Shown here piece after piece: positions 59,635-61,703 of a stretch of 64,000 nucleotides of DNA (the first letter of the stretch is position 1; the number at the start of each line of letters is the position of its first letter). Origin of the DNA: Actinomycetota bacterium (lineage in GTDB: Bacteria; Actinomycetota; Actinomycetes; S36-B12); assembly GCA_016717115.1 (NCBI GenBank), contig JADKGE010000003.1, positions 306,337 through 370,336 on the forward strand, given 5' to 3'. A program made the position numbers and the translations under genes. The notes under the pieces were generated by a model. The model ran no database searches, was not told the DNA's origin, and saw nothing but the letters and a program-made list of their open reading frames with translations.

Positions 59635-60775
59635 CTACCGGTCGACGTCGCCCACCACGAAGAAGAACGACATCACCGCGTCGGCGAGGTCATCGACGCG
59701 CGTGCCGACCAGGGCGGTGGTGAGAGCCTGGGCGTTCGCGAACGACGCGGATCGGATCTTCAGGCGCCATGGGGTCTTCTCGCCCACGCTCGCGAGCAAG
59801 CAGCCGGTGACGCCCAGGGGCCCCTCGATCCAGCCATGGGTGACACCCTCCGGCACTCGAACGGTCTTGGGGAGCAGCACGTTGACCGGCCCGTCGCCCA
59901 GAGACCGCAGCCGATCGATGCAGGCGGACATGAGGCGCAGGCTCGTGGGCACCTGCTCGAGGAGGAGGGCGTAGCGCGCGGTGGCGTCGCCCGTCGTGCG
60001 CAGGGGCACCGACAACTCGTCCGTCAGCTCGCCGTAGGCGAGGTAGGGCGTCGTCGCGCCGCAGGTCGATGTCGAGTCCGCCCGCCCGGGCGACCACTCC
60101 GCTGGTACCGAAGGCGATGGCCGACGGGCGAGACAGGGTCGCGAGCCCGGCGAGGCCGGTGGAGTAGTCGAGAACGGCGTCCTCGATCAGCGCGTGGGCG
60201 GACCCGAGGTCCGCGACGATTGCCGTGTACCTGTCGAGGGACACCGCATCGAGAGGGGTGGCGACCCCACCGATCCTGGCGAACATCGGGTGGACGCGCC
60301 CGCCGGTGACGTATTCCTGGGCGGCGACCAGACGCTCGCGGGCGCCGAGCGCGACGTCGCGGTGCGCCGTGTCTCTGATGACCGATCCGAGGAACGCGAG
60401 ACTGGCCGCGACGCGGTTCGCCTCGGCCAGGAGGGTGCGCGTCCAGGTCGCCCGCTCAGGGGGCGTGATTCCCGTGGCGTCCTCCAGGGTGAGGGCGACG
60501 GCGAGCTCGGACGAGAACGCCGAGAGCCAGTCGTGCCGGTTGGCGAGCATCATGAGCTGGCGGTAGTCACGGGCCTCGAACAGCTTCTCCGCGCCGCGGT
60601 GCATCAGGCCCATCCGCGGGTCGGCACTGACGACGACGCCGTCGTCGACACGCACCTGGAGCTGGAACCCGGCGTGCCCGGTGGGGTGGAAGGGGCGCAG
60701 GGCCAACACGCGATCGCAGTCGAGGTGGGCGGCCACGCCGACGCCGAACAGGAGGTCCGCCGGTGTGTCGGTCAC
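59635..60775 (-). pseudogene. NuoD / complex I 49-kDa subunit paralog, orphan, with an apparent 1-nt frame disruption near 60046-60050
   Basis: From GTG 60775: FHPTGHAGFQLQV, DPRMGLMHRGAEKLFE, NRHDWLS, ...GGLDIDLRRDD. After a frame change the reading continues PYLAYGELTDELSVPLRTTGDATARY...PEGVTHGWIEGPLGVTGCLLASVGEKTPWRLKIRSASFANAQAL...VVGDVDR. This is collinear with NuoD/NDUFS2. The span of 1141 nt equals 3n+1. Confidence 0.75.
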
Positions 60776-60779
60776 GTGG

Positions 60780-61703
60780 TCATCGTGCCAGTGCCTGGAC
60801 GAGCCACCAATAGTCGTCGCCGTCGCCTGACGGGAACAGCTCCGCGGAGTGAGCGCTGACGGCCGGCGCGCAGGCGTCGAGGGCGACGTGGGCGGTGATG
60901 TTGCAGGAGCCGTCCGGGATGGGGGAGACGAGGTGTCCGGCCCGATAGCCGGTGAGGGTCCCCCCGTCGAACAGGCCGTCGGCGCGCTGCGACGCGACAT
61001 GCGCGTAGTCGACGGCCAGCGCGATGCCATCGGTCACGAGGCCGGCGATGGCCGACCACGCCTCGTCGCGCGCGACGCCGACCTCCACCCGGGCGGCCGG
61101 CTCCCGACGGGGCCACCACTGCTCGCACCATGCGTCGAGACGGGCGCCGTCGACGTGCCGGGACCCACAGGCCCGCTGATCGTCTAGGGTCGGGCCGAGC
61201 TCCTGGGCGCCGGTGATCGGATCGACGAGGACGAGTCGGCGGGCTCCGCGATCGTCGATCTCGACGATGTCGCAGGGGATGTCGTCGAGCAGCTCGTGGG
61301 CGACGACGAGCCCGGGTCCCGGAGCGATCCTGGGACTGATGAGCCGCACGTCTCCCTGATGCCACTCGACGCTGGTCGCGACACGGTCCGGCCGAGGACG
61401 CACGTCGACCGCCCGCCAGGTCAGGCGCTGCGCCGTCTCCCTCGGGAGCAGCGTCCTGAGCTGGGCGAGGAGCGTGCCGTCGCCGCCCCCCACGTCGGTG
61501 ACGGTGACGGTCCGGTGCCGCTCGAGTAGCGCCGTGAGTGGGCCGACGGTCAGGGCGGCTATGCGGCGGGCGACGAGGTCCCCGTCGGTGACGTGCGTGG
61601 CGAAGGTGCTCTCGGCGTTCCCGGCCGTCGTCCGGTAGAAGCCGCGTGACCCCACGGCGGCGCGCTCCCAGGCGACCGACCAGGCCTCCGTGTCATCCGC
61701 CAC
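60780..61703 (-). CDS. MidA / NDUFAF7-family (COG1565, former DUF185) SAM-dependent methyltransferase
   Basis: VTVTDVGGGDGTLLAQL (SAM motif), VVAHELLDDIPCDIVE, and AVDYAH...GGTLTGYRAGH...DGSCNITAHVAL, which matches the family pattern DYG...GTL.xY.xH...DITAHVDF. The stop lies 4 nt before the NuoD-like GTG. Confidence 0.8.
   Translation of the reverse strand: MADDTEAWSVAWERAAVGSRGFYRTTAGNAESTFATHVTDGDLVARRIAALTVGPLTALLERHRTVTVTDVGGGDGTLLAQLRTLLPRETAQRLTWRAVDVRPRPDRVATSVEWHQGDVRLISPRIAPGPGLVVAHELLDDIPCDIVEIDDRGARRLVLVDPITGAQELGPTLDDQRACGSRHVDGARLDAWCEQWWPRREPAARVEVGVARDEAWSAIAGLVTDGIALAVDYAHVASQRADGLFDGGTLTGYRAGHLVSPIPDGSCNITAHVALDACAPAVSAHSAELFPSGDGDDYWWLVQALAR

Follow-up and report, generated by a model that had tools for sequence, protein, structure and literature searches.

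The stretch of DNA analysed here (the window) comprises 64,000 nucleotides (nt) of an Actinomycetota bacterium (GCA_016717115.1, contig JADKGE010000003.1, positions 306,337 to 370,336). Two consecutive minus-strand genes towards its end are the subject of this study. The upstream gene (60780..61703) encodes a 307-amino-acid (aa) S-adenosylmethionine (SAM)-dependent methyltransferase of the MidA/NDUFAF7 family (COG1565, PF02636), as judged from its open reading frame (ORF), Pfam, profile comparison and fold. The downstream gene (59635..60775) is an orphan NuoD-like gene that gives 379 aa when read through a frameshift and was assigned by PF00346, NCBIfam models and an AlphaFold2 (AF2) model. 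An operon-like spacer of 4 nt (60776..60779, minus strand) lies between the methyltransferase TGA (60782-60780) and the NuoD-like GTG (60775-60773), and the same spacing is found in contigs L001-L004. An earlier note on this DNA, made from the sequence alone, had taken the two genes for a possible enzyme-substrate pair. No other nuo gene was seen by eye among 56 rough gene calls of the window, made with no hidden Markov model (HMM) scan of every ORF, which agrees with what that note had stated.

The hallmarks of MidA described earlier for the 307-aa ORF (VTDVGGGDGTL, AHELLDDIPCD, VDYAH, GTLTGYRAGH and NITAHV) are all present on the minus strand, and the HMM searches suggested for the two products assigned both of them, to PF02636 and PF00346. 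The SAM-binding motif I, VTDVGGGDGTL, was read from the sequence at residues 68-78 (61470..61502, minus strand); the GxGxG-type motif within it, DVGGGDG, corresponds to residues 70-76, and the AF2 model of the protein has a predicted local distance difference test (pLDDT) score of 93.4. D70 and G72 are invariant in an alignment of 20 homologues. The match to PF02636 Methyltransf_28 reached 64.6 bits (E 1.3e-17, cut-off 23.3) and covered profile positions 16-239 of 249. A PDB search with the single sequence returned only spurious PsaR matches and a profile search was required; with a profile of the 20 homologues, 4f3n, 1zkd and the Dictyostelium MidA 5ztz were the sole matches, all of them COG1565. 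The six best Foldseek matches of the model were also COG1565/MidA structures (1zkd, 4g67, 5zu0 and 4f3n among them) with E ~1e-13 and TMq of 0.65-0.71, and the next-ranked fold followed only at E 5.6e-7. By Pfam, profile-versus-PDB search and predicted fold, the 307-aa product is a MidA/NDUFAF7-type methyltransferase, in keeping with the label "SAM-dependent MidA family methyltransferase" given by public sources. It is shorter than the characterised members (~390-430 aa), and the TM value normalised by target length is 0.53-0.59. A C-terminal insert of ~45 aa is present in the Streptomyces-type methyltransferases and absent from the window-type ones. Metatranscriptome coverage of the gene amounted to three contigs of 146-151 nt at a depth of 2-4, which was too thin and was left unused.

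The NuoD-like gene had been described as a gene of roughly 380 codons beginning four nucleotides after the methyltransferase stop. The spacer and the GTG start hold, but the gene is not a single ORF. Codons 1-243 occupy 60775-60047, codons 244-379 and the stop occupy 60045-59635 in the next frame, and the span 60775-59635 is 1141 nt or 380.3 codons, not divisible by three. The +1 frameshift falls in a CCC homopolymer (60046..60048, minus strand) in which the window carries one extra base relative to all other sources (blastn). Contigs L001, L003 and L004, 99.9% identical to the window, have exactly one C fewer in this run; L002, 98.6-99.0% identical, encodes the same intact protein; and contigs from runs X1, X2 and X3 (wastewater, freshwater and activated sludge) all omit one base at 60046. 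The protein encoded by contigs with no extra C, P0001 (..DLRRDDAYLAYGEL..), has 379 intact residues and is 99% identical. The source is an uncultured actinomycete of high GC content, and near-identical DNA is present in wastewater, activated sludge, freshwater and soil metagenomes. Since seven independent metagenome contigs are free of the extra base and encode the intact 379-aa protein, the frameshift of the window is most likely a homopolymer assembly error, a strain-specific lesion being less likely. The +1 shift in the window sequence could alternatively mark a genuine pseudogene or programmed frameshifting. The intact form in seven contigs from independent samples and the position of the indel within a C/G homopolymer, with a second homopolymer indel 3.7 kb away, led us to reject both; moreover, both halves of the gene are fully conserved with high third-position GC, and the homologues are single ORFs, so that we assign this explanation only a very slight probability. 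In close relatives, where the earlier note had allowed for a decayed pseudogene, the gene is intact and strongly conserved. The second difference, near 56374, is CCC in the window and CCCC in the 99.8% identical L001; it lies at the 3' end of ftsH (54435-56435), where it may change the C-terminal tail of FtsH, and suggests homopolymer errors in the source assembly.

The repaired NuoD-like product matches PF00346 Complex1_49kDa with an E value of 7.4e-41. Its scores against the NCBIfam NuoD models are 234, 222 and 214 bits, under the respective equivalog cut-offs of 360, 522 and 459. The AF2 model (pLDDT 89.7) superposes on 50 complex I 49-kDa chains with TMq of 0.77-0.84. By these profile scores and the predicted fold, the downstream product is a NuoD-fold protein and not a NuoD equivalog. 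The lowest AF2 confidence falls on residues 51-90 (block means 71-78) and 377-379 (<50). The first of these regions is the best conserved of the protein, HR[GS]AEK-RH(D)W, and the second is its GDVDR terminus; their counterparts pack on NuoB and cluster N2 in complex I. Low model confidence at these places would fit a surface that has to be completed by a partner.

What is known of NDUFAF7/MidA makes one residue of this stretch of special concern. NDUFAF7/MidA binds and methylates NDUFS2 (PMC3829151, PMC9006661). According to PMC3750175, PMC3829151 and PMC8042128, the target is Arg-85 of the bovine and human protein (R121 in Yarrowia), a residue 3.7 angstroms away from cluster N2 that assembly requires and that NDUFAF7 dimethylates symmetrically; the same Arg is dimethylated in Nqo4 of Paracoccus denitrificans, unmethylated in E. 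coli and replaced by Thr in Thermus. The motifs previously read in the NuoD-like product (GLMHRGAEK, NRHDWLS and the C-terminal GDVDR) all occur in it, and HMMER alignment to NDUFS2 chains bears out the two residue assignments made by eye. R60 of MHRGAEK (codon 60596..60598, minus strand) aligns with the Arg of NDUFS2 LLHRGTEK and is thus the equivalent of Arg-85. W83 of NRHDW aligns with the Tyr of NDUFS2 RLDY and stands in place of the quinone-ligand Tyr (Thermus Y87); the codons of R80-H81-D82-W83, which form part of the family signature, lie at 60527..60538 (minus strand). The equivalent of the other quinone ligand, Thermus H38, is a His in the window protein. A segment of 24-37 residues that is present in complex I NuoD, equivalent to residues 314-336 of Thermus Nqo4, is missing, and the HMMER alignments break at this point (query 289->304 against chain 316->353; query 308 against 313-337). 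The [NiFe]-hydrogenase profile PF00374 gave 15.8 bits, below its cut-off of 25.8. When aligned with the hydrogenase-like protein P0388 (RICGIC ... DPCMSC), the NiFe-ligand positions of the NuoD-like protein are D82, S85, V373 and D376. A [NiFe]-hydrogenase identity was ruled out on the missing Cys ligands and the score under the cut-off.

To delimit the family, we ran a motif-free HMMER profile search over 1.84 billion cluster representatives, which gave 134 representatives of at least 300 aa. Trp at position 83 was used to define the orphan-type group, and 91 representatives (clusters at 50% identity) were orphan-type, combining Arg60 and Trp83 with the short form. Arg60 was invariant (42/42, 81/81 and 91/91 orphan-type representatives). 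Among the Trp-type representatives, His81 is found in 90 of 93 and Asp82 in 80 of 93. The earlier note had the loop His residues retained, which is correct for the first loop His (81/93) but not for the quinone-ligand His equivalent to Thermus H38 (53/93). Since Arg60, Trp83 and His81 are conserved and the H38 equivalent is present in only 53/93, the family signature, as far as the alignments tell, is HR[GS]AEK ... RH(D)W and not the quinone site. The deletion interval measures 9-19 residues in the orphan-type proteins versus 32-44 in ten long canonical-type Tyr representatives. The Streptomyces-type orphans score 248-275 bits, about equally, against the Aquifex, Thermus, cyanobacterial, mitochondrial and mycobacterial NuoD. 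These near-equal scores indicate that the orphan family is an old branch and not a recent copy of a resident nuoD. Public sources nevertheless label the orphan "NADH-quinone oxidoreductase subunit D". In a deep orphan subfamily (L091, L094, L095) the signature reads RHDWQAPF or RHDWHASF, the C-terminus is GDLDK and the upstream gene is lsr2.

Could the orphan still serve in complex I, as an interchangeable form of NuoD whose quinone and inhibitor site is altered, with the methyltransferase as its assembly factor in the way that NDUFAF7 is for NDUFS2? The overall NuoD fold is kept with a TM of about 0.8, and in the Streptomyces-type orphans the NIGPQHPSTHGVLRL loop is still in its canonical form and Glu occupies position D139. 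A Tyr-to-Trp exchange can also confer inhibitor resistance: according to PMC4758237, Tyr-to-Trp mutants engineered in Yarrowia lost most of their DBQ (decylubiquinone) reductase activity and were inhibitor-resistant, and Y87W in the "NuoD" of piericidin-producing Streptomyces was presented in 2015 as a rare resistance substitution. Against such an isoform, all orphans are without the 24-37 residue segment, and the scores are far under the NuoD equivalog cut-offs. The window-type lineage has lost both the NIGPQHPSTHGVLRL loop and the Glu, with the beta1-beta2 loop and the D139 loop diverged, and H38 is variable, while the rest of the protein appears strongly constrained, as identity among window-type proteins holds at 55-76% over a wide divergence. 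No nuoB, nuoC or nuoH lies near the orphan in any locus examined, and no other nuo gene was found near it in the near-identical contigs, one Streptomyces locus and 12 further Pfam-annotated loci. We consider the isoform explanation quite improbable. Because Trp replaces Tyr, the segment is deleted, H38 is variable and NuoB, NuoC and NuoH partners are missing in cis, the orphan has very probably lost quinone reduction. A Trp-type orphan paralog occurs in more than 50 Streptomyces species among loci L022-L084. It is possible that the Y87W "NuoD" of Streptomyces, as given in PMC4758237, reflects confusion with this Trp-type paralog.

The earlier note had left room for the adjacency being confined to this genome. 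A one-genome-per-species scan for the orphan with the patterns [ML]LANRHDW and EKLFE[AS]RDY matched at least 595 species; motif invariance within a set selected in this way is circular. Adjacency was counted in the 80 best species-level loci of these, in which the window proteins were placed by tblastn. The 80 loci come from uncultured Actinomycetota, Nanopelagicales, Cryptosporangium, Nonomuraea, Kitasatospora, Streptacidiphilus, Actinacidiphila and many Streptomyces. The methyltransferase lies within 8 kb of the orphan in 72/80, so the adjacency extends well beyond this genome, and it is directly upstream on the same strand in 55/80. In the other arrangements it is upstream with 0.7-4.5 kb inserted (9 loci), convergent just downstream (5) or upstream on the opposite strand (3, L005 among them); three loci were too short to judge its presence. 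Measured from the methyltransferase stop to where NuoD-like homology begins, the gap is at most 150 nt in 54 of 59 same-strand loci, with 4-nt stop/start overlaps in at least three. No methyltransferase-NuoD fusion was found among 240 listed homologues, and the 500-aa protein P0110, tried as a natural fusion, proved to be an over-extended ORF antisense to DUF2520. An apparently divergent or pseudogenised methyltransferase in L005 was likewise rejected. That contig (CAVZPI010000033.1, ~2200-11700) carries an inverted duplication folE-folK-DUF3180-95aa-NuoD-like-methyltransferase with one arm full of frameshifts, and appears to be a fold-back assembly artefact in a public metagenome-assembled genome.

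From the family assignments and the recurrent gene order we propose, tentatively, that Arg60 of the orphan is methylated by the MidA-type enzyme encoded in the same small operon, a reading that we hold to be quite possible though short of probable. The two genes would be co-transcribed. The orphan would belong to an ancient paralog family of actinobacteria and work as a soluble NuoD-fold protein on its own; judged by its residues, it is itself unlikely to reduce quinone. The enzyme would modify Arg60 in the HR[GS]AEK loop, which in complex I faces cluster N2 and the NuoB subunit, and the methylation may adjust how the orphan folds or binds a partner, much as methylation of Arg-85 does when NDUFS2 joins NDUFS7. 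It may be optional: the Arg of E. coli NuoD is unmethylated, and some lineages likewise have the paralog and no neighbouring methyltransferase. To our knowledge, no substrate of MidA/NDUFAF7 has been proven other than the mitochondrial NuoD orthologue, in complex I. In the canonical actinobacterial NuoD 8e9g_D the Arg position is a Thr (LHTG) and the later motif is RMDY, as in Thermus 2fug_4, and P0376, the canonical copy in a nuoABCDEFG operon, has YLHTGIEK and RADY. Since the canonical actinobacterial copies examined (8e9g_D and P0376) have Thr at the site, the orphan would be the better candidate substrate.

The foremost rival is that the two genes are neighbours by synteny only and that the enzyme acts elsewhere, on the NuoD of a 14-subunit or a truncated 11-subunit nuo cluster or on a non-Nuo target. 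Several observations weigh against our proposal and in most cases lend themselves to this rival. Both genes sit in a deeply conserved fol-pan block (hpt-ftsH-folEPBK-DUF3180 ... DUF2520-panC-nadB) that is kept in every lineage examined, and ancient shared synteny makes adjacency alone weaker evidence than it looks. Viewed from the methyltransferase side (L086-L089), the methyltransferase is always divergent from Rossmann-like/DUF2520-panC-nadB-nadC-coaX, and in several lineages it is as constantly beside DUF2520 as beside the NuoD-like gene. The pair is split by P450, class-V aminotransferase, bPH_2 and glyoxalase genes, with the NuoD-like gene 3-5 kb further on (insertions are found in L020, L025, L086, L087 and L088), and in one methyltransferase-side locus the NuoD-like gene is not within 5 kb. 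At least nine lineages hold the orphan with no adjacent methyltransferase. Five of the 80 loci (L010, L016, L017, L018 and L059) have none despite adequate flanks, with the Arg invariant there, and the Arg is also kept in the methyltransferase-less L090, L092/L093, L097/L098, L091 and L094/L095. The same is true of gene order in all five extra representatives (P0069, P0241, P0252, P0288 and P0294), whose orphans occupy the same fol-pan position and abut DUF2520 in three cases and lsr2 in two. Of the two genes it is thus the orphan that resides more universally in the syntenic block, often but not necessarily accompanied by the methyltransferase, and the pairing is recurrent, not universal. Arg invariance in such lineages fits a structural role or, equally, an optional modification. 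Moreover, the Arg of the HRG-EK loop is found in 32/36 Tyr-type representatives and also belongs to the RGxE motif of [NiFe]-hydrogenase large subunits, and the invariance of Arg60 could be purely structural. A second, truncated nuo cluster is common in actinobacteria (PMC7771536), and the true target of the enzyme could be the NuoD encoded there. A PF02636 gene comes after the 11-subunit nuo operon of Ca. Actinomarina (bioRxiv 10.1101/2021.02.01.429150), an arrangement that also counts as a precedent for our proposal.

Other observations speak against synteny only. The spacing is operon-like with stop/start overlaps in some loci. In Streptomyces the pair stays together where the rest of the block is broken up, with DUF2520 and folK 5-7 kb away and ArsR/DUF5937, HisKA_3 kinase and OpuAC genes as neighbours. 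The pairwise distances of the methyltransferase and the NuoD-like protein correlate with r = 0.953, the highest of six pairs among four neighbouring genes, and the partial r is 0.69 when DUF2520 and PanC are controlled for, as compared with -0.12 to 0.39 for the other partials, although the sample falls into two large clades, which confounds this mirror-tree signal and leaves it suggestive only. Finally, the two families are a known enzyme-substrate pair elsewhere, and the canonical actinobacterial NuoD copies examined carry Thr at the target site. Taken together, we regard mere neighbourhood as fairly unlikely, though it commands serious attention, and methylation of Arg60 by the neighbouring enzyme is the reading that we prefer.

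Two further explanations turn on the new residues of the orphan. The first is a complex of the two products in which the NuoD-fold protein, not itself the substrate, would serve the methyltransferase as adaptor or ligand-binding subunit through a re-purposed His-Asp-Trp pocket at the former NiFe/quinone site, while the enzyme would modify a third molecule, be it a protein or a small molecule. In its favour, the H81-D82-W83 triad is a novelty relative to R(L/M)DY of NuoD and almost invariant, and the two proteins co-vary. The function of bacterial MidA homologues has so far been inferred in silico only, and there is a preliminary non-protein (DNA) activity for Wolbachia MidA (PMC12455994). On the other hand, no conserved neighbour points to a ligand or a third partner, no conserved extra partner gene such as a NuoB-like one being found in the Streptomyces locus or the split-pair loci, and the orphan occurs with no methyltransferase in many lineages. 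We give such a complex little chance. In the second explanation, which we also think improbable, the RH(D)W orphans would be a new soluble class on the NuoD/[NiFe]-hydrogenase fold, with the cavity re-purposed as a ligand or catalytic site (His-Asp-Trp and HR[GS]AEK) and switched by dedicated MidA-type arginine methylation. If true, it would be the first bacterial regulatory module based on arginine methylation, unrelated to complex I.

The surroundings of the pair are as follows. On the plus strand, convergent with the NuoD-like gene, lies a conserved 95-aa acidic ORF (59314..59601) with no Pfam or NCBIfam match. The earlier note had grouped this ORF with the pair, which does not hold, as it stays by DUF3180 in L020, where the NuoD-like gene is 4 kb away. 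It is 66-84% identical in close relatives whose NuoD-like protein is 52-71% identical, and genes of 94-96 aa lie directly downstream of DUF3180 in L089, L090, L092 and L097. It thus seems to be a conserved component of the folK-DUF3180 unit that still has no name. On the other side, divergent from the methyltransferase, is the Rossmann-like/DUF2520 gene (61739..62638, plus strand, start approximate; PF10727, PF10728), followed by panC. Its longest ORF begins at 61646 and so runs over the methyltransferase start (61703), which lies on the opposite strand, and with a start near 61739 the gap is ~35 bp. With such a narrow divergent gap (61646-61740 region), the promoters would lie inside coding sequence, or the starts are mis-set. 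A promoter and terminator scan of the window gave nothing meaningful in this high-GC DNA, and no tRNAs were found in the window. In the loci with separated pairs (L086-L088, L020 and L025), the recurring inserts are genes for cytochrome P450, a class-V aminotransferase and two bPH_2 (PF03703) membrane proteins. By eye, window positions 36276-48519 hold moeA, an ArsR/glyoxalase gene with an ACR3 arsenite carrier, pitA and pstC-pstA-pstB-pstS, as well as a minus-strand trio of DsrE-like and TusA-like small proteins and an FAD-dependent pyridine-nucleotide-disulfide oxidoreductase.

The two-gene unit is found in genetically tractable Streptomyces, in which one could test directly for arginine methylation of bacterial proteins with no 14-subunit membrane complex involved. 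A family of 91 clusters (50% identity) that goes by the name "NADH-quinone oxidoreductase subunit D" matters for annotation and for complex I censuses, and it also bears on the way in which "NuoD" substitutions such as Y87W in Streptomyces are read.

A full-text literature search found no description of the orphan NuoD and methyltransferase pair or of the orphan family, and comparison is with systems that share one or both components. The closest is NDUFAF7/MidA with NDUFS2 in human and Dictyostelium, which is alike in the methyltransferase family, the NuoD/49-kDa fold of the partner and the position of the target Arg. Here the partner is a stand-alone paralog with Trp for Tyr and the 24-37 residue deletion, the genes are adjacent and the enzyme is shorter (307 aa against ~390-430 aa); methylation has been shown there, whereas here it is a candidate activity. 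Nqo4 of Paracoccus denitrificans (PMC3750175) provides a bacterial precedent for methylating this Arg in a NuoD protein; it is, however, a canonical operon-encoded subunit of an alphaproteobacterium, and the text consulted mentions no gene adjacency. The canonical actinobacterial NuoD (8e9g chain D; P0376) has a homologous fold (124-248 bits) and differs in Thr for Arg, Tyr for Trp, the extra segment, an N-terminal extension and its embedding in nuoABCDEFG. In Ca. Actinomarinales (bioRxiv 10.1101/2021.02.01.429150; PMC7771536) an actinobacterial PF02636 gene is again linked to a NuoD-encoding unit, but there it follows the whole nuoABCDHIJKLMN operon, whereas here the orphan is the only Nuo-like gene. 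Among solved structures the methyltransferase comes closest, by fold and by profile, to the uncharacterised bacterial COG1565 proteins 1ZKD of Rhodopseudomonas and 4F3N/4G67 of Burkholderia, which are longer, 17-20% identical to it and, in the present data, not known to have a NuoD-like neighbour. With the [NiFe]-hydrogenase large subunit the orphan has an ancestral fold in common, while its PF00374 score is below the cut-off and the Cys ligand positions are Asp, Ser, Val and Asp. What is known, from mitochondria, is the relationship of the two families; what is new is the coupling of such an enzyme, across Actinomycetota, to a stand-alone NuoD paralog with an altered quinone site.

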